Below are positions 4,844 to 37,512 of a DNA stretch of 64,000 nt, one piece after another. Under the pieces are notes generated by a model that was not told the origin of the DNA, searched no databases, and saw only the letters and a program-made list of their open reading frames with translations. Where the stretch lies: contig OZ240251.1 of NCBI GenBank assembly GCA_965198285.1, positions 821,752-885,751 on the forward strand, read 5' to 3'. Within the stretch, counting starts at the first letter, position 1. Every line of letters begins with the position of its first letter. The stretch comes from Chloroflexota bacterium. GTDB taxonomy: Bacteria > Chloroflexota > UBA11872. The translations under genes were made by a program, and so were the position numbers.

Positions 4844-6013
4844 CTGTCTGACGCCCTGCGCGTCGGCCTGATTGCCGAACCGGCCGGCTGGCATCTCGAC
4901 GGCCTCATCGCCGTCTGCGCCCAGCATCCCGAAGTCGGCGAAGTCGCCGTCGCCGACCGCACCGGCCAGGTCGCCGGCGTCTTTCGTCCCATCACCGGGT
5001 CCTCGCCCGATCCCCACTGGCAGGGCCGTACGCACGAGCCTGGCTCCGGCCCGCCGCCCGGCTGGACCAAGTACGGACGCGAAGTCGACACGCCGTCCAT
5101 TCTTGGCGACAAGCTGGTCGCCAGCTTCACCGACCATCGCCGTCTGCTGGACGAATACAAGCCCGACGCGGTCTTGATCACGATGGAACCCCGCAAGATG
5201 CCGCCGGTGCTGATCGACTGCCTGGAAGCCGGCGTGCATGTGTTTCACGAAAAGCCCGCCTGCGGCCGCATCGAGGACTACCGTCGCGTAGTCGAGGCAG
5301 CGCACCGCTCATCCGCCCACCTCTGCGCCGCCTTCAACATGCGCGGCCTCGCCGCGGTCCGCGAAGCCCGCGACGTCGTGCAGAGCGGCGCGCTGGGTCG
5401 GCTGTTCGGCATGCAGGTGCACTACGTGGCTGAACACCCGCGCACCTGGCTCTGGGAAGAACTGGCCGACGGCTGGATGTACGACCGCGACCGCGGCGGC
5501 GGGCATCTCATCTTCCTGGGCTGCCACTACCTGGACCTGATGCGCTACATCACCGGCGCCAACGTGCGCCAGGTGGCCGGGTTCGCCGACAACGTGGGCG
5601 GCGAACCCATCAACGCCGAAGACGCCTACGCCATCAGCCTCAGGTTCGACAACGGCATGGTCGGCACCTTCTCGGGCGGATTCATGACACCGTCGTCACA
5701 GAAGCACGACGGCCTGCAAATCTGGGGCAGCCGCGGCTGGCTGCGCTTCAACCCCGAGGCCGACGACGGTTTCGAGTGGTTCACCCGCGAAGGTACCGGG
5801 GTCACCGCGCCCGAACGCCGGCTCAGCTTCACCGATACCGGCGTGAGCGGCGGGTTCGACCAGTTCAAACACGAGTTCTTCCAGGCCTGCCTGGGCAACG
5901 GCGAACCACCCATCAGCGCCGACGACGCCCTTTGGATGCACGAAACGGCGTGGGCCGCCCGCCGCGCCTCCGACACGGGTCAGACGCAGACGGTCAGCCT
6001 GGGAGGCAAGTAG
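4844..6013 (+). CDS. Gfo/Idh/MocA family oxidoreductase (start uncertain, probably CTG at 4844 or 4856)
   Basis: The track ORF starts at ATG 5174, but the same frame upstream (open from 4784) encodes the conserved N-terminal Rossmann part (LRVGLIAEPAGWH...DAVLITMEP...HVFHEKP). No ATG/GTG/TTG lies in 4784-5173. Confidence 0.7.
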   Translation: MSDALRVGLIAEPAGWHLDGLIAVCAQHPEVGEVAVADRTGQVAGVFRPITGSSPDPHWQGRTHEPGSGPPPGWTKYGREVDTPSILGDKLVASFTDHRRLLDEYKPDAVLITMEPRKMPPVLIDCLEAGVHVFHEKPACGRIEDYRRVVEAAHRSSAHLCAAFNMRGLAAVREARDVVQSGALGRLFGMQVHYVAEHPRTWLWEELADGWMYDRDRGGGHLIFLGCHYLDLMRYITGANVRQVAGFADNVGGEPINAEDAYAISLRFDNGMVGTFSGGFMTPSSQKHDGLQIWGSRGWLRFNPEADDGFEWFTREGTGVTAPERRLSFTDTGVSGGFDQFKHEFFQACLGNGEPPISADDALWMHETAWAARRASDTGQTQTVSLGGK

Positions 6014-6076
6014 CGCCCTCTCCGCACCGGTCACTGGTTTGGGCGGCTGGGCGGACCAACTCCCGAACCTTTGTCC

Positions 6077-6110
6077 TTGACGCTAATAGCGTAGCGCGCT
6101 AACATTCCAA
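6077..6110 (+). promoter_or_regulatory. sigma70-like promoter TTGACG-N17-TAACAT overlapping a perfect 10-bp palindrome TAGCGCGCTA (6092-6101), immediately upstream of higB
   Basis: Read directly: -35 at 6077-6082, -10 at 6100-6105, and the GTG start of higB at 6111 (5-6 nt after the -10, which implies a leaderless mRNA). Confidence 0.4.
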
Positions 6111-6398
6111 GTGATTAGGAGTTTCCGGGACAAGGACACCGAGGCGGTTGCCCAGCGGCGGCACGACCGCAAGTTCTCCCGGGAAATCCAACGTCGCGCT
6201 CAACGAAAGCTGATGATCTTGAACAACGCTGCGAGCCTGAACGACCTGCGCGTACCGCCAGGAAACCGTTTGGAAGCCCTTGCTGGTGACCGGACGGGGC
6301 AATACAGCATCCGCGTCAACGCTCAATGGCGCATCTGCTTTGATTGGGAAGACGGCGACGCCAATGCGGTCGAAATCGTGGACTATCACGGAGGGTGA
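6111..6398 (+). CDS. higB: HigB-family type II toxin (RelE/ParE superfamily mRNA interferase)
   Basis: 95 aa: MIRSFRDKDTE...LNDLRVPPGNRLEALAGDRTGQYSIRVNAQWRICFDWEDGDANAVEIVDYH, matching the HigB 'plasmid maintenance killer' consensus. Confidence 0.85.
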   Translation: MIRSFRDKDTEAVAQRRHDRKFSREIQRRAQRKLMILNNAASLNDLRVPPGNRLEALAGDRTGQYSIRVNAQWRICFDWEDGDANAVEIVDYHGG

Positions 6399-6399
6399 A

Positions 6400-6738
6400 A
6401 TGGCGGATGTAACGAGCTTGCGGATTTCAAGTGCTTCGCCACGTCCAGCCAAGCTTCCTCCCATCCACCCTGGCGAGATCCTGAACGAGGAGTTTCTGCG
6501 TCCGCTCAACCTCAGCCAGTACCGACTGGCGAAGGCCATTGGCGTCGATCCGCGCAGGATTCACGCGATCGTCCACGGCCAGCGGGCCATCACGGCCGAA
6601 ACGTCGTTGCTGCTCGCGCGCTTCTTCGGAAACTCGGCTGCATTTTGGCTGGGCTTGCAGAGTCAGTACGACTTGGAGACCGCCGAAGATCGACTGGCGG
6701 ACCGCCTGGAACAAGTGACGGCATACGCGAGCGGATAG
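6400..6738 (+). CDS. higA: HigA-family HTH antitoxin
   Basis: ATG 1 nt after the higB stop. Carries HPGEILNEEFL...LSQYRLAKAIGV...RIHAIVHGQRAITAETSLLLARFFGNS, an XRE-type HTH typical of HigA. Confidence 0.85.
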   Translation: MADVTSLRISSASPRPAKLPPIHPGEILNEEFLRPLNLSQYRLAKAIGVDPRRIHAIVHGQRAITAETSLLLARFFGNSAAFWLGLQSQYDLETAEDRLADRLEQVTAYASG

Positions 6739-7055
6739 GCTGCGCCGTCACATGGTTCTGGTTGATGGGTGAAGGCGTGAGCGGTCGAGCCCCGTGGCGC
6801 CTTTCCGAGTTGCGGGCCGACAATCCGAAGCGACCGGAGACGCTAGCGCTCCTCAGGATCTTGGCCCTGGGCAATCGTCAAGTCGCTGCCGGCCAGGTGC
6901 AGCCCGCCGCTGATGTCGTGGCCAAGCTGCGGGAGCGGCGACCGGACGGCTAATCGGTCTCGAGATTGCTTACTCGAGCTAGGCCTTCTCGATAGCGCAC
7001 TTGGGGACGCTGACTCCTTGCCGTCTCCCGATCAGTACGACCCTCGTTCAGATCC

Positions 7056-7391
7056 TCATTTCGCCAGGCGCGGCGAAACCGACGCTCCGGCGGGCTGGTA
7101 GCGCCGAACGCTGATTTCGCCGGCTCGGGCGCGCATCTGTGCGGCGTCGTACCAGGCTTGCATTTCCAGTAGCAGGTCCATTCGCACGTCAAAGGCCTTC
7201 TCGATGCGTAGCGCCATTTCGGGCGAGAGCGAGGCACGTCCGTTCAGCAGGTCAGAGAGCGTCGCCCGCCGCACGCCAAGAATCTCGGCCGTCTTCGTCA
7301 CGCTGAGTCCCAGCTCCTCGATGACCTCCGTACGGACGAAGTCGCCGGGATGCGCAGGGGTCATGCTCACGCCCCGGCGGCCGGCAGTCAT
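7056..7391 (-). CDS. orphan HigA/VapI-family HTH antitoxin (may start at internal M, 7364)
   Basis: HPGDFVRTEVIEELGLSVTKTAEILGVRRATLSDLLNGRASLSPEMALRIEKAF matches the HigA-family antidote. No HigB-like ORF lies on either side. Confidence 0.7.
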   Translation of the reverse strand: MTAGRRGVSMTPAHPGDFVRTEVIEELGLSVTKTAEILGVRRATLSDLLNGRASLSPEMALRIEKAFDVRMDLLLEMQAWYDAAQMRARAGEISVRRYQPAGASVSPRLAK

Positions 7392-7458
7392 TGGCGATAG
7401 TCCCCAACGTCCGAAGGTCGGGATCTAGGATTCTCCTCATGCTGCCGCGGACGAGACT

Positions 7459-8229
7459 TCAATTCGTCGCCCGCCGGTATTCGTACGTCGCCGCCCCCAC
7501 CAGCACCAGCGTCGTCGCCAGCAACACCCAAATGCCCGGCAGGATGCTGTCCCAAACCCAGCCTTCGATGATCACGGCGCGCACGGCCACCATGATGTAC
7601 TCGATGGGATTCAGGCCAACGGCCACCTGGAACCAGCCGGTCAGCAGGTCGCGCGGCATGAAGGCCGAGGTCAGAAACGCCAGCGGCATGAAGAGCAGCC
7701 AGCTATTCACCGTCACCTGCACGCTGCGGGTGCGCATGGCGACGATCAGGCCTACGCAGCCCATCGCCACGCCCAGCAATGTGGTGCCCACGATGACGCC
7801 CAGCACGCCGAGGATTCCGCCTTCGAAGCGCACGCCGATGGCCGTGGCCACCAGGATGATCGCCAGCACCTGCGCCATGGCCCGCGTGCCCCCAATCAGC
7901 AGCGTGCCCAGCAGGATCGAAAAGCGGTTCACGGGCGACAGCAGTAGCTTGTCCACGTAGCCCGACATCATGTCCGTCAGCAGCACCATGGCCATGTCGC
8001 TACCGCTGAAGACCACCGCCATCACGATCACCATGGCGGCCAGGAAGGCCTGGTAGTCGTCGGCCGGGAACCCCGGCAGCGCCGTGATCCCGCGCAGCGG
8101 CTCGCCAAAGAACAGGAACATGAACGCCGACGACAGCACCGCCGCCACGATCATCCACGGCTGCGCCAGCCACGTCTTCAGGTTCCGAACGTAAATGAAA
8201 TAGCTCTCTCGCAGTACAAGCATTGGCAT
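7459..8229 (-). CDS. ABC-2 type transporter permease
   Basis: Multi-TM 256-aa protein. Start taken at MPMLVL with an ATGA overlap to the upstream ATPase stop. Confidence 0.75.
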   Translation of the reverse strand: MPMLVLRESYFIYVRNLKTWLAQPWMIVAAVLSSAFMFLFFGEPLRGITALPGFPADDYQAFLAAMVIVMAVVFSGSDMAMVLLTDMMSGYVDKLLLSPVNRFSILLGTLLIGGTRAMAQVLAIILVATAIGVRFEGGILGVLGVIVGTTLLGVAMGCVGLIVAMRTRSVQVTVNSWLLFMPLAFLTSAFMPRDLLTGWFQVAVGLNPIEYIMVAVRAVIIEGWVWDSILPGIWVLLATTLVLVGAATYEYRRATN

Positions 8230-9254: not shown

Positions 9255-9701
9255 CACGTGCTCCTGTCGTGTCTCCAGTCGGCGTCCGCCCTGGGCCGGC
9301 CTCCGCTCCCCGACCGGTAGTCCATCACGAAGTCGATCTGTTTGGGAGGGGATAGCGCTCTCCACGCCAATTGGCGACCCCTGAATCGAGGAAGTTGCGA
9401 TGGCTTGACCAAGTCGCGCTACCATTATTGGGCTAGGAACCAACTAATGGTCCTACCCTCTCATGATGTAACATGGCAGCCATAGAGTCGTGTTCTGGCC
9501 AACGCCGAACGAGCTCCAACACCGCAGCTAATCTACCTTGGATACGTAAATCCGGATTGTTGCGTCGGCGAACCAAACCGTCGGCCTTGATACCTTTGGC
9601 AACCCATCGACTCTCACTTTAAGTGCTTGTGACGATCAGAACTAACGTGTGCTTTTCGCGCCGACCGACATCTCATAATCTGGCCCATATTCCAGCCAAC
9701 C

Positions 9702-10301
9702 CTATCTGGGAATAGTCGACTGGCCGACCTGCTGCTCGCCCTCGTGTTCGGAGTTTAAAGACTGTAGAAATCTAGTGACCGGCAAGATACTTTCTTGGCC
9801 GACATCCCAGCCAAGTTTCTCGGCACGCGAACAGATTGTGTCTGCCGTTAGAGGTTGCGGATCAGCGTCAAGAACATAGGAAACCTTCGCAGCTAACGAA
9901 AGCTGATTGTAATCTAAATCTCCTGACGAAGTAATTCGGCTAGCGGCTTGCCCAATCTTCGTCGCCGAATTCGTGTTTTTCTCGTTAAGGGTACAAGCGA
10001 GAGAGGCACCCTCGTTCGTAAGACTGTAGTCATACCGAATGCGACCATCGTGAGACGACTTACCAGAGTCGAATCTGATTTCATCCTCTTTAACAAAACC
10101 GAGTTGGACAAGCAAGCTTATCGCAGAGTCTATCTCCGGAGCGAATGGTCCGTAAAAATGCGGTCTGAACGAACAGTAATTTTGGCCGACGATTTTCTGT
10201 ACAAAGTACGCTCGCTTTTGAAGAAGCGTGCGCCCTTCAATCTTCCGATTCCAATTTTCAAGGAGAAGCAGTAAAAACTCAGCGGTGCTCAACTCCATCA
10301 A
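9702..10301 (-). CDS. Panacea (DUF4065, SocA/GepA-like) domain protein - putative antitoxin-like partner
   Basis: 199 aa in low-GC DNA. TLLQKRAYFVQKIVGQ...FRPHFYGPFAPEI resembles the LQKLLYYAQ / W.YGPV.PEVY core of DUF4065 (recalled consensus). ATGA overlap with the upstream HD gene. Confidence 0.5.
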   Translation of the reverse strand: MMELSTAEFLLLLLENWNRKIEGRTLLQKRAYFVQKIVGQNYCSFRPHFYGPFAPEIDSAISLLVQLGFVKEDEIRFDSGKSSHDGRIRYDYSLTNEGASLACTLNEKNTNSATKIGQAASRITSSGDLDYNQLSLAAKVSYVLDADPQPLTADTICSRAEKLGWDVGQESILPVTRFLQSLNSEHEGEQQVGQSTIPR

Positions 10302-11696
10302 CTAGCCTCCTGAGTATCCTGCCTCGCACCGAGGACATCGTCCATTATACCCTCAATCTCCTCCTGCAGGCCAATTCTTCCTGCGTCCGAATCGTAGGCA
10401 GCGTCAAGATTGTCCGTTGGGGCGTAGATGGATACAAACTCGCGTGCAAGGGATCTACTGAGTGATTGAAATATCATTGATTCATCGCGAAACTCGGTGG
10501 GGGCAGAACCAGCGTGAATGACCAGGAGATTGCCCTCGTCATTCGATTCGGATTTCTTCAGTCCCCAATTGAGCGAGTGCTTTGAAAAGATTACATCATC
10601 CGGTTCAATTGAAATGGCCCTTGCCACAGCTTGCTCCACTCGACGCTTGAGCTGAGCATTGATTTGCGATGTTAGTGCAGTTCGTGACTTAGCGGGCATC
10701 GCATCAAGCTTTCGATGGAAGATTCGCTTAAATAGCCTTCTTTGCTTGAGTCTGGTCATCAGGCGAGAGAACTTTGTCGTGTCTTCTGCATCTTCAGCAT
10801 ACTGAAGCAGGCGAAGGTCATCCCACATAGATAGTTCAATTGCATAGTCCATGGAATCTCTGAAAGTGAACGCGTCTTGGATTGGTTTGAGTTCGTCGTG
10901 AGTTACAGCGAGAAGAAGGGCTCTGATTAACATATGATCCGTGCACAGCCGCACGGGATGAGAATATACCTGAGCGTGCATATAATACCGTGCCTGTACG
11001 AATTGCTCAGTAGCTTCAATCCCACCCGAGCTGATCCCCAAGTATGACTCTTGGCTCTCGGGATACCGGCGAATCGTGCGATGCAGGCGGTCGATATCAT
11101 ACTGCCCATACTTTACGCCGCAAAAGTGTGCATCGCGGAGGAGATAGTCTTGCTTGTCGGCGTCTATCGGTCCTGTAATTGCTTGCGAAAGAAGGTGGTT
11201 GGTCGTTCTCTTAGTGAGCACGTGAGATATCTCTTGGAGTTCATGGGGCGAAATATGATTGGATAGTGAGCTGTCTTCTTCAATGAGATCAGAGAGCAAT
11301 CTTCTCGTGCGCATCATCGGGAATCGAAGTTCCTGAGAGGGTTTCCGAGATCTCCAGCAAGGCTTGTTCCGCGAGATGCGAGAACGGGCCGTGGCCGATG
11401 TCGTGAAGTATGGCGACAAGACCGAGCAAGCGGCGTTCATCGTCGTTCATGTTTGTGGCGGCGGCAATACGTGACGCGATATGGGCGACTCCGAGTGTGT
11501 GATCGAAGCGAGTGTGAGTAGCGCCAGGGTAGACGAGGGACGTAAAGGCAAGCTGGCGAATACGGCGGAGTCGCTGCAAAAGGGGTGTATCGATGATGCG
11601 CCACTGCAAAGGTTCGAGGTGTATATAGCCGTGTACTGGATCGCGAACGTCGTTGGGTGGCAAGTTTGCCCATCGCTGTATTATTGTGATGCTCAT
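10298..11696 (-). pseudogene. SAMHD1/dGTPase-like HD-domain dNTP triphosphohydrolase, interrupted by a +1 frameshift near 11290-11330
   Basis: N-terminal ORF (11696..11289) has DPVHGYIHLEP...LLQRLRRIRQLA...THTRFDHTLGV...LHDIGHGPFSH. The downstream frame (..10298) has ITGPIDADKQDYLLRDAHFCGV. Both are SAMHD1 signature blocks, but they sit in two frames that overlap by about 40 nt. Confidence 0.75.
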
Positions 11697-12054
11697 GGTA
11701 ATGTAACACGTCGGTGTTTGGCTGGGGTTTCGCGTGATAGATTGACCTCGTGGGATGTTGATGCGGGTGCCTCTGGTAACGGGTGGAGACGCGATTGCAA
11801 CTTCGCCGACAGACTCAGCGCCTCCCTGAGCGGTGATCGTGAGATGAAATCTGAAGCAGCGAAGTGTCGTTCGTTACGTCTCGGGACGGCTCGAAACTCA
11901 TCTTTCCTAGGATGAAGTCGCTAGAGTTGGCTGCCACCATGCGGCTCCCAGCGTCCAATTGCTGCTTAAGGCACCACTCATCAATAGCCCACTCTGCTAC
12001 CGTGCCCCGCTAGAAAAACCTCGGCGCCGGGCTCACGACGCCGACGAACGGGAG

Positions 12055-26548: not shown

Positions 26549-26623
26549 TGGTAGCCCCGCCCGGACTCGAACCGGGGCGCATGGTTTAGGAAACCACCGC
26601 TCTATCCACTGAGCTACGGGGCC
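26549..26623 (-). tRNA. tRNA-Arg (anticodon CCT)
   Basis: Hand-folded cloverleaf. Acceptor GGCCCCG/CGGGGCU with G1-U72, D-stem GCUC/GAGC, anticodon loop UUCCUAA, T-arm CCCGG-UUCGAGU-CCGGG, and encoded CCA. Confidence 0.85.
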
Positions 26624-26777: not shown

Positions 26778-27863
26778 CTAGTCCAACGGCGCTCCCAGGC
26801 ACAGGCCCGTATCGCGCGCGGCCAGCATCCACGGGTGATCCAGCGGCACCGTCTTGCGCTGGCTGGCCACGGCCGCCACATCGACCAGCGCGGTGCCTTC
26901 GCCGCGAGCCGCCACCATCACGCCCCTGGCGCCTGCGGCCACCGCGTCGGCCCCGGCCGTCCCCAGCCGAGTCGCCAGCAAACGGTCAGCGGCCGTGGGC
27001 GTCCCACCGCGCTGCACGTACCCAAGAATGGTCAGGCGCGCTTCCAGGCGTGTCAGCACTTCCAGGCGGCGAGTCAGCGCCAAGGTGGATCCGGCGAACT
27101 CGAATGCAAGGCTGTAGTCGGAGGCCGCGTCGGGCAACCCCAGGTCCGCCGGATTCCGCGGCTGCGCGCGCTCCGCCACTGCCACAATGCTGAACCCGTG
27201 CCCACCCAGGCTGCGCTGGCGGATGGACTCCGCAACGTATTCCACGTCGTAGGGCACTTCCGGCAGCAACACCACGTCCGCGCCGCTGGCCAGCCCCGCG
27301 CCCAGGGTCAGCCAGCCCGTGTTATGCCCCATGATTTGCACCACGATGATGCGGTGGTGACTGTGGGCCGTGCTGTGCAGCCGGTCGATGGCCTCGGTCG
27401 CGATCGACAGCGCCGTGTCGAAGCCGATTGTCGTGTCGGTATGCGCAATGTCGTTGTCGATCGTCTTCGGCAAGGTGACGATGTTCAGCCCTGCGTCCAG
27501 CAGCCGATTGGCGCTGGAATGCGTGCCGCCGCCGCCCAGACACACCAGCGCGTCCAGGTGCAGGTCCGCGTAGTTCTCGCAGGCGCGGGCCGTCATGTCG
27601 ATCGTTTGATCGCCAACCCTCAGTTTGTGCGGCTTGTCGCGGCTGGTCCCCAGAATCGTGCCGCCGCGCGTCAGAATCCCGGCCAGGGACTCCGAGTCCA
27701 GTTCCACCACCCGGTTCTCCACCAGGCCACGAAACCCGTCGCGAATCCCCACCACGCGCATGCCGTAGCGCCCGATGGCGGACTTGCCGACCGCGCGGAT
27801 GGCCGCGTTCAACCCGGGACTGTCGCCCCCAGCGGTGAGAATGCCAATGCGACGGGGGGTCAT
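26778..27863 (-). CDS. pfkA: 6-phosphofructokinase
   Basis: [27 protein letters not shown] and MGHNTGWL blocks. Confidence 0.9.
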
Positions 27864-28139: not shown

Positions 28140-29294
28140 ATGCTTTTCAGCACGCCCCTGCTTGATCCGCACGAAGAGGCCGTCTGCGCGCGGGTCGACG
28201 AGTTGCGCCACGCCCTGCGCGGGCAGGTTTCCGAGGATCGACGCTGGACCGGCCTGCTGCGACGGGTAGCGTCCGCGCGTGCAATTCAAGGGTCCAACAG
28301 CATCGAGGGCCTGGACGTCACGCTCGATGACGCCGTGGCGGCCGTGGCCGGCGGTGACCCGCTCGACGCCCCTGACGACGTTTGGGCGGCAATCAGGGGG
28401 TACCGCCAAGCCATGACCTATGTCTTGCAGCTCGCCGACGATCCGCACTTTGCGTATGACACGTCGCTGATCAAGAGCCTGCACTACATGGTGATGGAAT
28501 ACGACCTGACCAAAGGCCCGGGACGCTGGCGGCCAGGCGCCATCTATGTTCGCCGCGAGCGGACTCAGAAGGTCGTATACGAGGGGCCCGACGCCATCGA
28601 AGTTCCCGGGTTGATGCATGAACTGGTCGACCAACTCCAGGAGCAGGATCCTGCCGCTCCGGCGACTGTCCGGGGAGCGATGGCCCACCTCAACCTGGCC
28701 ATGATCCACCCGTTCCGTGACGGCAACGGCCGGATGGCGCGCATTCTCCAGGCGGTCGTCCTTGCCCGTGAGGGGGTGTTGGCGCCGGCCTTCGTGAGCA
28801 TCGAGGAGTATCTGGGCCGGAATACGGACGACTACCACGCGGTGCTGGCCGACGTTGGCGGAGACATGTGGCGGCCCGGACGCAATGCCCGCCCATGGGT
28901 CCGGTTTGTTTTGACCGCGCACTATCGCCAGGCTCACACCCTGCTGCGGAGGGCGAACGAGGCGGAACGCCGCTGGGACATGCTTGACCATGAGGTGTCG
29001 CAACGGCGGCTGCCCGAGCGCTGCGTCGGCGCTCTGTGGGATGCGGCGCTCGGGTTCCGGGTACGGAATTCGACGTACCGGGACTTCGCTGAACTGGGCA
29101 TCGTCGCCGCCGGTCGCGACCTGAAGGCCCTCAGCGATGCAGGGTTCCTGGTCGCGCAGGGCCAAGGTCGCGGCCGCTACTACGTGGCCTCCGACGCGCT
29201 GCGATCGCTTGAGGATTCGATTCGCCGCGATCGGTCGCCAATACTTGATCCGTTTGAGCAGGACCCACGACAGCGCGCGCTGCCGCTAATGTGA
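28140..29294 (+). CDS. fic: Fic family protein (class II, N-terminal inhibitory motif)
   Basis: Fic motif HPFRDGNGRMAR, N-terminal SNSIEG matching [ST]xxxE[GN], and a C-terminal wHTH-like GRGRYYV. Confidence 0.9.
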   Translation: MLFSTPLLDPHEEAVCARVDELRHALRGQVSEDRRWTGLLRRVASARAIQGSNSIEGLDVTLDDAVAAVAGGDPLDAPDDVWAAIRGYRQAMTYVLQLADDPHFAYDTSLIKSLHYMVMEYDLTKGPGRWRPGAIYVRRERTQKVVYEGPDAIEVPGLMHELVDQLQEQDPAAPATVRGAMAHLNLAMIHPFRDGNGRMARILQAVVLAREGVLAPAFVSIEEYLGRNTDDYHAVLADVGGDMWRPGRNARPWVRFVLTAHYRQAHTLLRRANEAERRWDMLDHEVSQRRLPERCVGALWDAALGFRVRNSTYRDFAELGIVAAGRDLKALSDAGFLVAQGQGRGRYYVASDALRSLEDSIRRDRSPILDPFEQDPRQRALPLM

Positions 29295-29370
29295 TGACAC
29301 TCTCGATGGCAACCAAAGCCGGACGTTGGTACCGGTCGCAGATCGGCTGCGAGGCGCGAATGGGACGTCG

Positions 29371-31746
29371 ATGGGCTACCGGCTAGAGACCCCCGCCGTC
29401 TTGCAGGGTGCCTACGCATGCGACTTGGCGCCGGATGTAGACGGGCGGGCCTTTGGCGCCTGGGCCGCGAGCGATTGGGCCGAGGAGGCGCTATTCGCCG
29501 CCCGTTCAAACACTGGGGGCGGGGGCTGGCGGTTCGCACCGGGTCGAGACGAGGGCGACTTCAGGGCGCGGCTGGGGGCTGCGCGCTATCGCGTCTACGC
29601 GGGAGCGGTGGGCGGAGACGAACTCGCGCCCGTCGAACTGACGGAGAGCCCCACCGTCATTCAGGACCCGGCGGTGGCCGCCTACGGGGATCAACGCCTC
29701 GTGGCCTGGGGCGAGCGCATCGACCGCCGTTTCGTCGTGCGGGCCTGGACCGGAGCCTATGCCGAAACCGTGGCGTCCACGCCGGCCTCGCTGACCCGGC
29801 CGGCCGCGGCCATCGATTCCGACGGGCAGCCGTGGGTGGCCTGGCAGGCCTTTGCCGGCGATGGCTGCGCGGTGGTTGTGAGCCGAAGGAATGCGAAGGG
29901 TTGGACACCGCCCGTGGTGGCCTCGCTGCCTGGCCAGTCGGCCTGGCGGCCGGCCTTGTGCGCGTCGGCCAGTCATGGGGTGTGGCTGGCCTGGGACGCC
30001 TGGACCGGTCACCACTTTCATGTATTTGCGCGGCGCATCGGACCGGACGGCACGCTTGGTCCGGCTGTCCAGGTCAGCGACCTGCCGCTGCTGGCCATGG
30101 ACGTGGACGTTGCCGTGGATGCCGATGACACGGCCTGGCTGACCTGGGAGCAGTCGCCGCCCTGGGGCTTGAACCACCGCTTCAACGAGACGCGGCAACT
30201 CGTGCTGGCGGCCGTCGACGCCGGCGGCCAGACCTTCCTGGCTCAAAGCCCCTGGCAAGCGGGGCAGGCCCCGATCCCGATTCAGACCTTCACGCACGTT
30301 CAATCGGCCGAGTACATCGTGCCGGTGTCGCCGCGTCTGATCGTGGGACCTCGCGGCATCGAACTGTTCTTCCAGCGCTTCCGGAGCTCGGACTACGTGG
30401 ACTTCGGCTGGCGGCTGGAGCGCATGGTCTATTCCGGCTCGACGTGGTCGGACCCGGAGACGGTGAGCCCCTTTCAGGGCACGCCGGACACGCGCTATGG
30501 CGTGGCGGCGTTGCCTGACGAGCGGCGCGTGGTGGCGCACAACGCCTCCGACTTTGCTCCCATGCAGACGCTTGAGCGTTGGCGGGCTGGGCTGCCGTTT
30601 CTGCGCGACGGCGGCGGGCCCGTGGATGGAGAGCGAATCGAGGTCTTGACGCTGGCGCCGCCGGCAACTGCCGTTGAGCCGCCGCTGCGCATTGAGTTCC
30701 CACGCTACGAGGGCGTGCGCGAGGACAGACCGCGAGTACGTCGCGACGGCCGCACGATCACCGTGGGCGACCAGACCTATCGCCTCTACTGGGGCGACAT
30801 GCACCGGCACTCGCACCTCTCCAAGTGCATCGCGGCCAACGACGGGTCGCCGGTGCATAACTTCCGCTGGGCGATCGACCACAACCGCATGGACTTCTGG
30901 GCGCTCACCGAGCATCTGGAATACCTGAGCTACAACGAGTGGCGCCGGGTTGAGGAGACGGTCGCCGCCTTCTCGAACGACGGCCGCTTCGAGCCGCTCT
31001 TCGGCTTCGAGTGGGGCCTGAATCCCGGCCACACCAACATCTTCTACCGCGACCAGGAGCTGGGCGAGGAGCTACGCGCCCTAGCCCTGACGTCGCCGAG
31101 CCTCGAGGATCTGATGGAGCGCTGGGACACCCGCATCCCGGCTGGTGCGGTGATGGCCGCGCGTCACTATCACGGCCACCGGCAGCCGGACGTCTTTGAG
31201 GGCTTCCGTCCCACCTGGGAACCCGCCATGGAAATCATGCAAGCCCGTGGCGACCAGCGGGAGTGGATCGAGACCTTCCTGGGTGAAGGCGCCCGCATCG
31301 GCTTCATCGGCGCCACCGACCACGCGCGCTACTGGCACTTCGCCTATTGCATGACGGGCGTCTGGGCCACCGAGCCAACCCGCGAGGCGATCTTCGAGGC
31401 CATTTGGAGTCGTCGAACCGTGGGTGCTTCGGCCAAGATCCTCGTGCATACGGAGGTTTCCGGGATCCCAATGGGCGCTGAGGGTGACGTTCAGGGCGAT
31501 CCCCAGCTGCGAGTGATCGCCGAATGCGCCCAGCCGCTCCGAGAGCTCGAGGTCTACCGCAACGGCGCGCTGGCGCACCGTGAGTCCATGGACACGTCCA
31601 ACCTGGATTGGACCTGGACCGATCGCGGCAACCCGCGCAGCCAGAACTACTACTACGTCAAGCTGACTGCCCAGACGGCCCACCCGCTCGCCACCCCGGC
31701 CGTGGCCTACGCATCCCCCGTGTGGGTGACGACCAACGACTCCTGA
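29371..31746 (+). CDS. large two-domain protein: W-rich beta-propeller-like N-half + PHP/DUF3604-like His-rich C-half
   Basis: Repeated AW..W blades (PWVAWQAF, VWLAWDAW, AWLTWEQS). The C-half has LYWGDMHRHSHLS, WALTEHLEY and GFIGATDHARYW. Start chosen at MGYRLE by alignment with the paralog. Confidence 0.7.
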   Translation: MGYRLETPAVLQGAYACDLAPDVDGRAFGAWAASDWAEEALFAARSNTGGGGWRFAPGRDEGDFRARLGAARYRVYAGAVGGDELAPVELTESPTVIQDPAVAAYGDQRLVAWGERIDRRFVVRAWTGAYAETVASTPASLTRPAAAIDSDGQPWVAWQAFAGDGCAVVVSRRNAKGWTPPVVASLPGQSAWRPALCASASHGVWLAWDAWTGHHFHVFARRIGPDGTLGPAVQVSDLPLLAMDVDVAVDADDTAWLTWEQSPPWGLNHRFNETRQLVLAAVDAGGQTFLAQSPWQAGQAPIPIQTFTHVQSAEYIVPVSPRLIVGPRGIELFFQRFRSSDYVDFGWRLERMVYSGSTWSDPETVSPFQGTPDTRYGVAALPDERRVVAHNASDFAPMQTLERWRAGLPFLRDGGGPVDGERIEVLTLAPPATAVEPPLRIEFPRYEGVREDRPRVRRDGRTITVGDQTYRLYWGDMHRHSHLSKCIAANDGSPVHNFRWAIDHNRMDFWALTEHLEYLSYNEWRRVEETVAAFSNDGRFEPLFGFEWGLNPGHTNIFYRDQELGEELRALALTSPSLEDLMERWDTRIPAGAVMAARHYHGHRQPDVFEGFRPTWEPAMEIMQARGDQREWIETFLGEGARIGFIGATDHARYWHFAYCMTGVWATEPTREAIFEAIWSRRTVGASAKILVHTEVSGIPMGAEGDVQGDPQLRVIAECAQPLRELEVYRNGALAHRESMDTSNLDWTWTDRGNPRSQNYYYVKLTAQTAHPLATPAVAYASPVWVTTNDS

Positions 31747-31758
31747 GCGGCCGCACCC

Positions 31759-32727
31759 TTACGGCAGGCCCAGGGCCTCCACAGCTTCATGTAAGTCGGG
31801 CGGCAGCGGTCCCGCTTGGACGGCCGCCACGCTTTCCTCGATCTCGGACGGCGTAGCCGCCCCGACCAGGATGGTGGCAATGCTTCGGTCGGCCACCAGG
31901 AATCGCAGGGTTAGCGTGACCAGTGACAACTGGCTTTCCCGTTGCAACTCAACCAGACGCAACACCCGCCGCTGTTCCTCGGGCGTCATCCCGCTCGGCC
32001 AGACTGGCGGTGTCCGAAGCCACTCCGGGCGGATCGTCACGAGCTGACCACGCCGGAACACGCCGCCCAGCGCAATCGCGGTACCGCGCTCTCCGGCAAC
32101 CGGCAGCAGCTGGCGACGGATACCGCGGTCGATCAGGCCGTAGCCGAGAGCGCTCAGACAGACGTCCACCTTCGCTTCGCCCGCCGCGCGCATGACGTGC
32201 GCCAGGTGGTCGGGGCTGTTGCCGCTGATGCCGACGTGGCGGCAACGACCCTCGGCCCGGGCTTCGCGAAGTACCTGCATCACCGGTGCGTTCGCCACGT
32301 CGGGCTCGGACTCCAAGTCAACGAACAGATCATCGCTCGGCTCGTCGGTCCACCAGTAGTGATGGTCGGCTTCATGGATCAGCAGCACGTCCACGCACTC
32401 GCGCCGCAGGACCCGCAGGTTTTCCTCGAGCTGCGTGTGCAGGGCGTCGGGCGAGCGAAAGCGACCGGGCTGCGCCAGGTGGCCGATCTTGGTCGACACC
32501 AGCTGTGGTTCCGGGCGTTCCTGCAGGGCGACACCGAGAATTGCCTGGGCGACGCCAGAACTGTAGAGCGGGGCGGTGTCGAAGTAGTTGACCCCGAGTT
32601 CCAACGCGCGGTGGACCGTTGCCATGCCGTCGGCGAACGACACGCGCGGCAGTCCGCAGCCACCCAGGCTGAGGGCGGTTACCCGCTCGCCGGTACGCCC
32701 GAAGGGCCGCTGCTCCAGCCTGTGCAT
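31759..32727 (-). CDS. aldo/keto reductase
   Basis: GVNYFDTAPLYSSG and IGISGNSPDHL blocks. Start at MHRLEQRPF, avoiding overlap with the paralog start. Confidence 0.85.
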   Translation of the reverse strand: MHRLEQRPFGRTGERVTALSLGGCGLPRVSFADGMATVHRALELGVNYFDTAPLYSSGVAQAILGVALQERPEPQLVSTKIGHLAQPGRFRSPDALHTQLEENLRVLRRECVDVLLIHEADHHYWWTDEPSDDLFVDLESEPDVANAPVMQVLREARAEGRCRHVGISGNSPDHLAHVMRAAGEAKVDVCLSALGYGLIDRGIRRQLLPVAGERGTAIALGGVFRRGQLVTIRPEWLRTPPVWPSGMTPEEQRRVLRLVELQRESQLSLVTLTLRFLVADRSIATILVGAATPSEIEESVAAVQAGPLPPDLHEAVEALGLP

Positions 32728-32884
32728 CGCAGAGCCTAACCCGTGTCTGTCTGGGCTGAACGCTCCGGAGAGACGGGCGCGGTATCGGGGGAGGGTCATC
32801 CTGCGGTTCGAGTCTCACGCAGCCACCGCGCTAGGCTGGCGGCGGCGAGTCTCCGGCGCCGGTCGGCAACAAGGAGAGGGCGCG

Positions 32885-35266
32885 ATGGCGATAGATCACT
32901 GGCCTGACACCCCCACGGTCCTCCAGGGCGCCTACGCCTGCGACGTGGCGCCGGACCCGGACGGCGGCGTCTTTGGCGCCTGGGCCGGGAGCGGCTGGGG
33001 CGAAGAGGCGCTCTTCGGACTGCGCATGTCTCACCCGGGTGGGCATTGGCAGTTCGCGCCAGGGCACGACGAACGCGACTTCATGGCGCGCCTGGGAAGA
33101 GGGCGCTTTCGGGTCTACGCGGGCCAGCTGGCCGGCGATGACCTCGATCCGGTCCAACTCACGGAGAGCCGTACCGCGATCCAGGATCCCGCAGTGGCCG
33201 CCTTTGGCGATCAACATCTCGTGGCCTGGGGCGAGCGCCTTGATAACCGCTTCGTGGTGCGGGCCTGGACCGGCGCGGAGGCCGAGACCGTAGCCGCAAC
33301 GCCCGCCTCACTCACCCGGCCGGCCGCGGCCATCGACACGGACGGACAGCCGTGGGTCGCCTGGCAGGCGTTCGCGGGCGACACCTGCGTCGTGGTGGTG
33401 AGCCGTCGCCTGGCGGGCGGCTGGACGGACCCGGTGGTGGCCTCCGTTGCGGGCCAGTCGGCCTGGCGGCCGGCGTTGCGCGCGGCAGCTGGCCAGGGCG
33501 TGTGGCTGGCCTGGGACGCCTGGACCGGGCACCACTTCCACGTATTCGCCCGGCGTATTGGGGCGGACGGAGCGCTTGGCCCAGTGATTCAGATCAGCGA
33601 CCTGCCCCTCCTGGCCATGGACGCGGACATTGCGGTGGATGCGGACGACACGGCCTGGGTGACCTGGGAGCAGTCGCCGGCCTGGGGTGACGATCACCGG
33701 TTCAACAGGTCCCGGCATCTCACGTTGGCCGCCGTCGACGCCAGCGGAGAGACCTTTCTGGCCGGGAGCCCATGGGGCGCCGGGCAGGCGCCGATCCCGA
33801 TCGAGAGCTTCATGCAGAGCATCTGCGCGGAGTACATCGTGCCGGTGTCGCCACGCTTGGTTGCGGGACGCGATGGAATCGAGCTGTTCTTTCAGCGCTT
33901 CCGCAGCCGGCACCAGAAGGACTTTGGCTGGGGGCTGGAGCGCATGGTCTACGCCGGCTCGTCCTGGTCCGACCCGGAGACGGTGAGCCCCTTTCAGGGC
34001 ATGCCGGACACGCGCTACGGCGTGGCGGCGCTGGCAGACGGGCGGCGGGTGGTGGCGCACAACGCCACCGAATACATCCCCATGCAGACCGTTGAGCGCG
34101 CGGCGGCCGGCCTGCCGAAACTGCGCGGCGGCAGCGCACCGGTGAACCGTGAGCGAATCGAAGTCCTGACGCTGGAGCCGTCGGCCGCCGCGGTTGAGCC
34201 GCCGCTACGGGTTGAGTTCGCGCGCTACGAAGGTTCCCGGATTGACAACCCGCAGGCCCGCAGGGATGGCCGCACGCTGACCGTGGGCGACCAGACCTAC
34301 CACCTGTACTGGGGCGACATGCACCGGCACTCGCATCTCTCGAAGTGCATGTCGCCGAACGATGGGACGCCGCTGCAGCACTTCCGCTGGGCCGTCGATC
34401 ACAACCGCATGGACTGGTGGGCGCTCACCGAGCACCTGGAATACCTGAGCTACAACGAGTGGCGCCGGGTTGAGGAAACCGTGGCGGCCTTTACCAGCGA
34501 CGGACGCTTCGAGCCGCTCTTCGGCTTCGAGTGGGGCAACAACCCCGGCCACACCAACATCTTTTACCGGGATCAGCAGTTGGGCGAGGAACTACGCGCC
34601 CTGACCCTGATGTCGCCCAGCCTCGAGGACCTGATGGAGCGCTGGGACTCGCGCCTGCCCGCCGGCGAGGTACTGGCGGCGCGCCACTACCAAGGTCACC
34701 GGCAACCGGACGTCTACGAGGGCTATCGCGCCACCTGGGAACCCTGCATGGAGATCATCCAGGCCCGCGGCGACCAGCGGGAGTGGATCGAGACCTTCCT
34801 GCGCGAGGGCGCCAGGATCGGCTTCATCGGCGCCACCGACCACGCCCGCCACTGGCACTTTGCTTACTGCATGACCGGGGTGTGGGCCACCGAGCCGACC
34901 CGCGAGGCGATCTTCGACGCCATCTGGCAGCGGCGGACCATCGCCGGCTCGTCCAAGATCCTGCTGCACACCGAGGTCTCGGGTGTTCCCATGGGCGCGG
35001 AGGGTGAGATCGAGGGCGACCCCGAACTGCGGGTGATCGCCGAATCCGCCCAGCCGCTGCGCGAGATTGACGTCTACCGCAACGGCACGCTGGCGCACAG
35101 GGAATCCGTCGATATGCCCAAGCTGGACTGGACCTGGACCGACCGCGGCAACCCCCGCAGCCACAACTACTATTACGTGCGCCTGACCGCCCAACCCGCG
35201 CTTCCTCACGCCACCCCGGCCGTGGCCTACGCCTCGCCTGTTTGGGTGCGCGTCAATAGGCCCTAG
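32885..35266 (+). CDS. paralog of 29371..31746 (beta-propeller-like + PHP/DUF3604-like protein)
   Basis: About 75-80% aa identity to the first copy over the full length. Start at ATG 32885 (MAIDHWPDTPTVLQGAY), preceded by AAGGAGAG. The track's 100-codon upstream extension overlaps the AKR gene and is rejected. Confidence 0.7.
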   Translation: MAIDHWPDTPTVLQGAYACDVAPDPDGGVFGAWAGSGWGEEALFGLRMSHPGGHWQFAPGHDERDFMARLGRGRFRVYAGQLAGDDLDPVQLTESRTAIQDPAVAAFGDQHLVAWGERLDNRFVVRAWTGAEAETVAATPASLTRPAAAIDTDGQPWVAWQAFAGDTCVVVVSRRLAGGWTDPVVASVAGQSAWRPALRAAAGQGVWLAWDAWTGHHFHVFARRIGADGALGPVIQISDLPLLAMDADIAVDADDTAWVTWEQSPAWGDDHRFNRSRHLTLAAVDASGETFLAGSPWGAGQAPIPIESFMQSICAEYIVPVSPRLVAGRDGIELFFQRFRSRHQKDFGWGLERMVYAGSSWSDPETVSPFQGMPDTRYGVAALADGRRVVAHNATEYIPMQTVERAAAGLPKLRGGSAPVNRERIEVLTLEPSAAAVEPPLRVEFARYEGSRIDNPQARRDGRTLTVGDQTYHLYWGDMHRHSHLSKCMSPNDGTPLQHFRWAVDHNRMDWWALTEHLEYLSYNEWRRVEETVAAFTSDGRFEPLFGFEWGNNPGHTNIFYRDQQLGEELRALTLMSPSLEDLMERWDSRLPAGEVLAARHYQGHRQPDVYEGYRATWEPCMEIIQARGDQREWIETFLREGARIGFIGATDHARHWHFAYCMTGVWATEPTREAIFDAIWQRRTIAGSSKILLHTEVSGVPMGAEGEIEGDPELRVIAESAQPLREIDVYRNGTLAHRESVDMPKLDWTWTDRGNPRSHNYYYVRLTAQPALPHATPAVAYASPVWVRVNRP

Positions 35267-35470: not shown

Positions 35471-35992
35471 ATGTTAACGGAGCTTATTATGCGACGTATT
35501 ATCCCTCGGCTTCTTGAAATATTCAGCTTCCCTCATCCGGTCAATGAAGTCGCCGCCAGAGTCGTGGCCGGAATGGTAGTAGCTCTATCCCTTACGATAT
35601 TGCTAACAGGTCAGTGGTGGCTTGTTTTCCTGCTTGCCTATGGCTTTCTGGCCAGGGTAGCCACCGGACCTACGTTGAGCCCGATGGGACAGCTGTCCAC
35701 CAGGTTGATCGCGCCGCGAATCGCTAAGCCAAAGCTCGTGCCGGGGCCGCCCAAGCGCTTTGCGCAAACCGTCGGGCTAGTCTTCTCTACGACCGCGTTG
35801 GTATTGCACTTCGTGACAGGATTCTCAGTGGCGGCCGGCGCCGTTCTGGCCGTGCTGACCGTATTCGCCGCGCTCGAGTCATTTCTGGGCTTCTGCGCTG
35901 GCTGCTTTGTGTTCAACTATTTGATTCGCTGGGGATTGGTGCCACAGTCGGTCTGCGAAGAGTGCATCAACTTCGACCAGACACGAACTTAG
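35471..35992 (+). CDS. DUF4395-like small membrane protein with CxxC/CxxC
   Basis: 173 aa, about 55% GC. TM segments plus C-terminal CAGC...CEEC. Family assignment is from memory. Confidence 0.5.
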   Translation: MLTELIMRRIIPRLLEIFSFPHPVNEVAARVVAGMVVALSLTILLTGQWWLVFLLAYGFLARVATGPTLSPMGQLSTRLIAPRIAKPKLVPGPPKRFAQTVGLVFSTTALVLHFVTGFSVAAGAVLAVLTVFAALESFLGFCAGCFVFNYLIRWGLVPQSVCEECINFDQTRT

Positions 35993-36066: not shown

Positions 36067-37236
36067 GTGGCAAAGACAGCTCCGCTCTTTAACCACTGCC
36101 TCGAGCGTTCCACATCACACGAGCATTGGCGGGGTGCATCGCGGTTTGACAGCCTGAATCGATCCGCGATTCCCGCGATGCAGGCCGCCCGTGACGAGCT
36201 GGCGCGCTGGTACTCGCGATTTCCCGATCAGGACGGTGATCTGCGCTCTCGCTTTCGAGGACCTGACGACAACCACGACGGGGCGTTCTTTGAACTGTTC
36301 CTGCACGAGTTGCTTCCACGTCTCGGGCTATCTGTGAAGGCGCACCCCAGGCTGGAAGACGGAAGCAGTCCCGACTTCCTCGTCGCAGGCCCTGATGGAA
36401 AAGCCTTTGTTGAGGCGACGTATCTGAAGCAGCGATCCACGGTTCCTCCGCTCGAAGCCAATGTGCTCAATGCGATCGACGATCTGGATTGCCATGTTCC
36501 TACGGATGTTGGGCTGAGTGTGTGGGTCACTGGATCTTTGAAGCGAGAACCGAGGCTCAGACCAATCACGGATGATGTCTGCAGCTGGTTGAACCAGCTC
36601 GATTCACGGAGCGTGCGCTGGCGTGACGGGGCTGAGAAACACATTCGGGTCGATCCTAAGTGCAGCGATTTAATTCTCGCGCTACAGGCAGTCCCACGGA
36701 CAGTAGCCAGCCGTGTGATTCAGGCTTGGTCATCTAGTGGCTGGAGCGGGATCGTCGGCGAGGAGGTATACAACGCGGTCTCGAAGAAGGTCCGCAAGTA
36801 CAAGAGTCTCGACCATCCGCTGGTCGTCGCGGTGAACATCGCCAGCGCCGGTGCCGAACCGCACGAGGAGGCTGCGCTGTTCGGCCACCCGACGCTTCGC
36901 CTCCGACGTAGCGAGGATGGCGTCAATCTGACACCGGCCGGGATCATGCACACCGGGAAGGCGCTTTGGTTTGACAACACGAAGCGCCGCAATCACTACC
37001 CTAGGCTGAGCGCCGTGATGATGTTCCACGATCTCGCGCCATGGACCGTCGCGAACGTTTCTGCCTGCCTCTACCTGAATCCGTACGAAGACGACCGGGT
37101 GCCGCGGGAACTGCGGACCCTGGGCTACGCCGCGGAGTCGGCCGGGCAACTCCGGAGGTACAAGGGAAGTCGCTTAGTCAGGGATGTGCTTGGGCTGCCG
37201 GAAGACTGGCCTGGCAGCTTCGTCCTCGGCGACTAG
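36067..37236 (+). CDS. hypothetical protein (389 aa, no recognised domain)
   Basis: Long ORF with protein-like composition in the lower-GC segment next to tRNA-Glu. Confidence 0.45.
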   Translation: MAKTAPLFNHCLERSTSHEHWRGASRFDSLNRSAIPAMQAARDELARWYSRFPDQDGDLRSRFRGPDDNHDGAFFELFLHELLPRLGLSVKAHPRLEDGSSPDFLVAGPDGKAFVEATYLKQRSTVPPLEANVLNAIDDLDCHVPTDVGLSVWVTGSLKREPRLRPITDDVCSWLNQLDSRSVRWRDGAEKHIRVDPKCSDLILALQAVPRTVASRVIQAWSSSGWSGIVGEEVYNAVSKKVRKYKSLDHPLVVAVNIASAGAEPHEEAALFGHPTLRLRRSEDGVNLTPAGIMHTGKALWFDNTKRRNHYPRLSAVMMFHDLAPWTVANVSACLYLNPYEDDRVPRELRTLGYAAESAGQLRRYKGSRLVRDVLGLPEDWPGSFVLGD

Positions 37237-37435: not shown

Positions 37436-37512
37436 TGGTAGGGCATGCGGGATTCGAACCCGCGATCTCCGCCTTGAGAGGGCGGTGTCCTGGGCCGCTA
37501 GACGAATGCCCC
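37436..37512 (-). tRNA. tRNA-Glu (anticodon CTC)
   Basis: Near-identical to the canonical bacterial tRNA-Glu scaffold (UCGUCUAGCGGCCCAGGACACCGCC-CUCUCAA-GGCGG...GGUUCGAAUCCCGC). Acceptor GGGGCAU/AUGCCCU, encoded CCA. Confidence 0.85.

Follow-up and report, generated by a model that had tools for sequence, protein, structure and literature searches.

The 64,000-nucleotide stretch analyzed here, which we call the window, comes from a Chloroflexota bacterium (GenBank assembly GCA_965198285.1, contig OZ240251.1, positions 821,752 to 885,751 of the forward strand) and contains a tandem pair of genes for large proteins, copy A and copy B, on either side of an antisense aldo/keto reductase gene. Copy A lies at 29371..31746 on the + strand and encodes 791 amino acids from its ATG, in an open reading frame (ORF) that opens at a TTG at 29326. 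Copy B lies at 32885..35266 on the same strand and encodes 793 amino acids from an ATG preceded by a AAGGAGAG ribosome-binding site, in an ORF that opens at 32588. The preliminary description of this DNA had reported two proteins of about 790 amino acids with 75-80% identity, and this is indeed what was found: BLASTP aligns the two proteins without gaps at 78.6% identity over 784 amino acids, and blastn gives 80.1% DNA identity over 2357 nt. The head-to-tail order with an antisense aldo/keto reductase between the copies and a fic gene upstream was likewise confirmed by Pfam matches (Aldo_ket_red, 1.5e-32; Fic, 9e-14). The claim that 30750-30960 and 34265-34475 are nearly identical was overstated, since DNA identity there is ~86-90% and no identical run between the two genes exceeds 41 nt. 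No third copy of the A/B gene was found in the window.

The structure of copy B was predicted with AlphaFold from 58 diverse full-length family members. This model is confident (predicted local distance difference test score, pLDDT, 90.3; predicted template modeling score, pTM, 0.92) and supersedes an earlier AF2 model from 21 close sequences, in which the PHP domain was poor (pLDDT 71). It consists of an all-beta region with 27 beta strands (residues 1-440), a low-confidence linker (437-459), an alpha/beta region in which strands and helices alternate (~465-690) and a C-terminal beta-sandwich (691-793). As modeled, each protein is thus an N-terminal sialidase/TolB-like beta-propeller followed by a PHP-fold domain and a C-terminal beta-sandwich. 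In copy B the predicted propeller is encoded by 32885..34204, the PHP-fold catalytic domain (residues 465-690) by 34277..34954 and the sandwich by 34955..35263. The propeller of copy A (residues ~1-440, 29371..30690) was placed by the gap-free alignment to copy B together with the copy B model, its PHP-fold catalytic domain (30757..31434) by motif positions, profile alignment to the protein structure 3E38 and family conservation, and its sandwich (31435..31743) by the corresponding all-beta segment of the copy B model; this segment aligns with the C-terminal ends of a DUF3604 protein and, in relatives, of the NF038032 model, both discussed below.

The N-terminal domain matched six- and seven-bladed propellers in Foldseek (pseudaminidase, neuraminidases, TolB, GH145 and PLL lectins, E 1e-9 to 1e-7), at only 8-15% identity and template modeling (TM) scores of 0.4-0.6. 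With sialidases, neuraminidases, TolB and GH145 as top matches, the propeller-like character proposed in the preliminary description holds. Of its repeated AWxxW blades, the literal motif is present in two (AWDAW and AW[LV]TW) and absent from the others (AWQAF, AWGER, AWAxS). No Pfam sialidase or BNR match was obtained for the window proteins. All listed Foldseek rows for the whole model are propeller matches, so that Foldseek does not bear independently on the fold of the PHP domain; a PHP barrel in copy B is indirectly supported by the 3E38 profile match. No solved structure was found for any full-length relative.

The preliminary description suggested a check for signal peptides; a hydrophobic N-terminus is present in neither copy, from which both proteins would appear to be cytoplasmic. 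A signal-peptide-like N-terminus is seen in 0 of the 2 window copies, but in 56 of 137 full-length family members, mostly in forms of 900-1000 amino acids. The family is split between proteins of ~750-800 amino acids without a signal peptide and proteins of ~900-1000 amino acids that have an additional N-terminal region and begin in a signal-peptide-like manner. A single family member has 3809 amino acids with 18 matched stretches. A conserved cysteine at residue 19 of copy B (32939-32941) belongs to an N-terminal G(F/Y)xC motif that distant members of the family also have.

Classical PHP enzymes bind metals with a ligand series of the form HxH...D...H...E...H...H...D(x)H, and the metal cluster activates water. 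The WGDMHRHSHLSKC, TEHLEY and GATDHAR(Y/H)WH motifs, on which a PHP/DUF3604-like C-terminal part had been proposed, are found in both copies, and the assignment stands: Pfam DUF3604 is matched above its gathering threshold in both, and among homologs conservation is highest at the His/Asp/Glu motifs, so that the refuting outcome named in the preliminary description did not occur. The predicted ligands are H480, H482, D493, H517, E549, H556, H601, D652 and H653 in copy B and the same residues two positions lower in copy A (H478, H480, D491, H515, E547, H554, H599, D650 and H651). A direct PDB sequence search with copy B gave chance-level matches only; the 58-sequence family profile matched PDB 3E38 with E=1e-7 over residues 439-672. 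[quoted passage not shown] In the profile alignment all nine 3E38/No-PDE ligands align to copy B ligand residues, and among ~140 representatives of clusters built at 50% identity the nine positions are 85-100% conserved. Additional conserved residues specific to the family are S486, C488, N558, E623, Q626, R628 and R683. C488 of copy B (34346-34348) lies in an SKC motif beside the metal site; of 138 representatives, 98 have Cys at this position and 36 have Asp.

The Pfam DUF3604 model (PF12228, gathering threshold 20.4) scores 26.6 bits with copy A and 35.7 bits with copy B, at model positions 376-406 (A) and 130-264 (B), both matches being limited to short stretches in the C-terminal part of the proteins. 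A haloarchaeal protein of 645 amino acids annotated as DUF3604 by PGAP aligns by BLASTP with residues 474-787 at 29% identity (E=2e-27), a range that takes in both the PHP domain and the sandwich of copy B. The DUF3604 relationship is thereby confirmed, but for no more than the C-terminal third. A 456-aa gene upstream of the haloarchaeal DUF3604 gene was considered as a detached propeller and rejected (hhalign probability 0.1%). In the literature search DUF3604 received a single, incidental mention, and nothing relevant to propeller/PHP fusions was found.

A connection with characterized enzymes was obtained through the NCBIfam model NF038032, which describes the CehA/McbA family metallohydrolase domain. 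It is matched at E<=0.01 by 49 of the 58 aligned full-length relatives (best 3e-26); all 315 positions of the model are covered, by the C-terminal 330 residues of these proteins. When the profile of the window clade was compared by hhalign with that of twelve relatives, of which four had been confirmed one by one as NF038032-positive, the probability was 100% with E=8e-122 over 754 columns, propeller included. A tblastn search against plasmids for annotated CehA/McbA genes returned DUF3604 proteins only. A word-index search found 24 relatives, nearly all of them 793-aa proteins with 59-88% identity from Chloroflexota metagenome bins, and a second such search with a diverse alignment added no new full-length relatives. 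An exhaustive profile search matched 12,453 clusters at E<=1e-3, 4,520 at E<=1e-10 and 582 at E<=1e-30, with many full-length matches of 750-1000 amino acids. The family is distributed over Chloroflexota, Poribacteria, Planctomycetota, Lentisphaerota, Actinomycetota and archaea. For ten representatives the source name was "hypothetical protein" or absent in every case. The window pair are additional members of a catalogued but functionally obscure family.

The history of the pair was followed in species-representative genomes, which were scanned with a closer alignment and yielded 69 loci. Both copies are present in ~18 Chloroflexota genomes in the order phosphofructokinase (PFK, - strand), Fic, A, reductase (- strand), B, DUF4395. 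A-type orthologs are 84-91% identical in ~20 genomes, and B-type orthologs 83-94%. In a neighbor-joining tree the A-type and B-type clades are reciprocally monophyletic, and the single-copy loci L004/L023, L025, L005 and L001 fall outside both; copy A is the more derived paralog and copy B is closer to these outgroups. Nineteen positions are fixed differently between the two clades, mostly by conservative replacements, and 13 of these are derived in A. Synonymous divergence (dS) amounts to 0.72 from clade A to clade B and to 0.51-0.55 inside the clades. Copy A has a ratio of nonsynonymous to synonymous divergence (dN/dS) of 0.145 and copy B one of 0.137, and in the PHP domain this ratio falls to 0.06-0.07. 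In every 40-codon window, A-B identity within a genome equals that between genomes (mean difference <=0.013), which speaks against concerted evolution. Based on the tree, the identity windows, dS and dN/dS, A and B are the products of an ancient duplication, and both copies are independently maintained and functional under purifying selection.

These results bear directly on the two explanations given in the preliminary description for the retention of both copies. A recent segmental duplication, or homogenization by gene conversion, would account for the stretch at 30790-31015, where A and B share 89-90% DNA identity, and for a marginal excess of A-B identity in columns 340-380 of the paralog alignment, seen in this genome only (0.858 compared with a between-genome mean of 0.79). 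The former stretch is equally well conserved from genome to genome, which would be expected of a catalytic core, and we attribute its high identity to purifying selection. Together with the tree, in which single-copy outgroups branch outside two monophyletic clades, the uniform identity windows and the larger dS between clades than within them, this leads us to reject a recent duplication or gene conversion for the locus as a whole; either is now hardly credible. The other explanation, that A and B are two subunits of one obligate heteromeric enzyme, fits their co-occurrence in the same order and under equal constraint, and the few, scattered and conservative clade-fixed differences fit a shared function. 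It is nonetheless unlikely: both copies carry the complete ligand set, so that neither would be a scaffold subunit, and the related lineages L004/L023, L005, L001 and L025 have one copy. The two genes are also transcribed as separate units: an antisense gene lies between them, and in several genomes ~3 kb with MFS and LppX-like genes do so too. In addition, the 769-aa McbA is reported as a monomer of ~80 kDa (PMC5141477).

Two further possibilities concern the domain that does the chemistry. The propeller could itself carry out catalysis, as a glycosidase or lyase resembling sialidases or GH145, with the PHP domain as an accessory, given that sialidases, pseudaminidase, GH145 and PL42 enzymes are its top structural matches, that relatives have faint GH43 Pfam matches and that some relatives have glycan-related neighbors. 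The low identity and TM scores of these matches, which the non-enzymatic TolB and lectins equal, argue against it. Furthermore, W115 and W349 alone are nearly invariant in the propeller among the 58 aligned members, with no sialidase/GH33 Arg triad or Tyr/Glu nucleophile pair apparent, and it is the PHP domain that has the strongest conservation and the lowest dN/dS. We consider a catalytic propeller very unlikely. Alternatively, the proteins could be catalytically inactive binding proteins that merely retain a PHP-like fold; such a purely structural PHP domain is described for E. coli Pol III alpha (PMC3666897). Loss of ligands is characteristic of inactive PHP domains, and here all nine are kept in both copies and in the family, in the very domain where dN/dS is lowest, which makes this explanation extremely improbable.

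Taken as a whole, the explanation that we prefer and regard as probable is that A and B are ancient, maintained paralogs encoding cytoplasmic single-chain metal-dependent hydrolases with a three-metal PHP site and a pocket-shaping propeller. By analogy with characterized PHP enzymes, the PHP-fold domain would hold a three-metal center in which two metals activate a bridging water and the third stabilizes the leaving group, so that an ester bond could be cleaved. Most PHP enzymes cleave phosphoesters, and the bond here may be of this kind; it may alternatively be a carbamate or carboxyl ester, the type cleaved by CehA and McbA. For the propeller, a role in forming or gating the substrate pocket is most likely, because of its family-conserved motifs WGxxHRFN (residues 267-274), FGW (347-349) and PDT (374-376) and its predicted fixed position against the catalytic domain. 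We infer hydrolytic activity on a small, probably carbohydrate-derived ester, with A and B possibly differing slightly in specificity.

The suggestion of a carbohydrate-derived substrate comes from neighbors of distant relatives, a heterogeneous set in which families of sugar metabolism recur. The surroundings of the relative P0023 include genes for a sugar-binding protein, GFO_IDH_MocA, a glyoxalase and a semialdehyde dehydrogenase. AP_endonuc_2 is immediately upstream in L005, a UxuA-like gene is downstream in L004, and MR_MLE dehydratases are found near a clade 35% identical to the window proteins. L034 has GFO_IDH_MocA on both sides, and elsewhere AXE1-like esterase, beta-helix and Laminin_G_3 proteins occur. 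Sulfatases and SBP_bac_1 are also among the neighbors of relatives, and a sugar-phosphate isomerase gene is near the haloarchaeal DUF3604 gene. These neighbors are no more than suggestive of a role in carbohydrate metabolism.

Several observations weigh against the metallohydrolase explanation or parts of it. The last ligand motif is D-H in the window proteins and D-x-H in 3E38. The DUF3604 match spans about a quarter of the Pfam model (~130 of 591 positions). The window proteins match no NCBIfam model, and NF038032 is silent even at E up to 10, so that their link to this model passes through intermediates; six relatives scored individually on NF038032 reached 39-80 bits, below the 80-bit cutoff. 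The assayed proteins, from which the activity would be extended by analogy, include none of the propeller-containing, cytoplasmic form. Contact between propeller and active site is predicted from pTM and conservation. The A/B-fixed differences, just 19 and mostly conservative, would offer little for divergent specificity. In Pfam counts the commonest neighbor family of distant homologs was found in at most 5 of 123 neighboring proteins, and the carbohydrate link is weak for this reason. A more far-reaching proposal is that propeller-PHP-sandwich proteins constitute a very large enzyme class whose role would be to strip carbohydrate-derived metabolites or glycans of a phosphate, carbamoyl or acyl ester substituent, with CehA and McbA as recent recruits and A and B as two specificities or a heteromer of one pathway step. 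We regard this as unlikely.

Other genes at the locus show different degrees of conservation. The phosphofructokinase gene (26778..27863, - strand, divergent transcription; Pfam PFK 4e-95) is the most stable neighbor of the locus and also adjoins the single-copy homolog in L004/L023. A DUF4395 membrane protein gene (35471..35992, + strand; Pfam 5e-37) is a conserved neighbor in the two-copy clade and follows B in nearly all two-copy loci. The aldo/keto reductase gene (31759..32799, - strand) is convergent with copy A, with a 12-nt gap between stop codons, and divergent from copy B. Its product matches Pfam PF00248 over residues 43-343, and on reading its sequence, the Asp, Tyr, Lys and His of its FDTA, PLY, STKIG and LIHEAD motifs are consistent with the catalytic tetrad. 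No match to this reductase was found in L008, L009, L011 or L021, and L014 has only a remnant of 105 amino acids with 51% identity. The Fic-family gene (28140..29294, + strand) ends 76 nt upstream of copy A. The Fic slot is occupied across related genomes by one of two sequence classes, ~90% and ~67% identical, or has no Fic at all, and no tblastn match was found in L020 or in the single-copy loci L004/L023. Since each is missing in some syntenic genomes, the reductase and Fic are dispensable accessory neighbors and not fixed parts of the unit. The Fic protein has the canonical HPFRDGNGRMAR active-site motif, and its N-terminal SNSIEG fits the (S/T)xxxE(G/N) auto-inhibitory helix motif.

In several genomes (for example L007, L010, L016, L020 and L026), ~3 kb separate the reductase, or A, from B; this insert is lacking in the window genome. 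It contains genes for an MFS transporter and an LppX/LprAFG-like lipoprotein on the - strand in L007 (5137-7547) and L008 (5215-7595), and L011 has ORFs that match the L007/L008 insert in size and position (5138-7545). Several of the related genomes are presumably of sponge origin, to judge by their sample names. A and B have no upstream k-mer of >=8 nt in common, and promoter and terminator scans gave results at chance level only.

Downstream of DUF4395, an ORF of 389 amino acids (36067-37236) gave no Pfam or NCBIfam match; it has counterparts that are 66-85% identical in some related genomes, and in L003 a CMAS-type methyltransferase was called on the opposite strand in the matching interval, between DUF4395 and ffh. 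Two tRNA genes on the - strand, tRNA-Arg(CCT) at 26549-26623 and tRNA-Glu(CTC) at 37436-37512, bracket the block from PFK to this ORF, and several gene-content differences among related genomes fall within this bracket. Elsewhere in the window, a low-GC island at 9700-11920 (GC 0.51 in 10001-12000 compared with 0.62-0.72 elsewhere) contains - strand ORFs for an HD domain (11292-11696) and an HD-associated region (10301-11440). These overlap in different frames and could for this reason be one frameshifted or mis-started dGTPase/SAMHD1-like HD phosphohydrolase. Horizontal acquisition of the island is possible.

The main gain from this analysis is in annotation: two hypothetical proteins can be described as propeller-fused PHP-type metallohydrolases, related to CehA/McbA and DUF3604, with a complete predicted three-metal site, and the tandem pair as an old and stably retained duplication, not a recent event. 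The A/B pair does not challenge current understanding. The family is large and environmentally widespread. CehA and McbA, the only enzymes assayed in the CehA/McbA family, with which the window proteins are connected via intermediates, degrade man-made carbamates. The natural substrate, once found, would explain the origin of these pesticide hydrolases and add a reaction for uncultured Chloroflexota.

Among known systems, sialidases and neuraminidases, TolB, the GH145 protein BT3686 and PLL lectins share the predicted fold of the N-terminal 440 residues; this is a similarity of fold only, since neither common catalytic residues nor an Asp-box pattern could be detected. Histidinol-phosphate phosphatase, YcdX/TrpH-type proteins, the PHP exonucleases of PolX and DnaE1 and CpsB-type tyrosine phosphatases have a ligand pattern in common with the window proteins. 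Unlike the window proteins, these classical PHP enzymes have neither propeller nor sandwich; none gave a significant direct sequence match, and the Pfam PHP model matches only one relative (0.006). The propeller half has no similarity to the haloarchaeal DUF3604 protein, whose first motif reads H-V-Q in place of H-x-H.

The protein 3E38 from Bacteroides vulgatus shares with the window proteins the layout of a PHP domain and a C-terminal beta domain. It differs in its length of 343 amino acids and in lacking a propeller, and the window proteins have a six-residue insert (KCMSPN) ahead of the Asp ligand. Even in 3E38, the substrate-pocket residues described for No-PDE are not retained (PMC11656708). 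The Rhizobium sp. AC100 enzyme CehA and the Pseudomonas enzyme McbA, which are carbaryl/carbamate hydrolases, have man-made carbamates as substrates, and their genes reside on mobile catabolic elements, while the window genes are chromosomal, encode no signal peptide and stand among housekeeping genes; McbA we take to be periplasmic. The cehA gene of 2385 bp encodes 794 amino acids (PMC4850150), and the essential histidines 467, 477 and 504 of McbA lie in its PHP-like region (PMC8292978). With 794 and 769 amino acids compared with 791 and 793, and with a PHP-like catalytic region that begins near residue 465 as in the window proteins, CehA and McbA share the size of copies A and B and, as far as the position of the PHP-like region shows, their layout.

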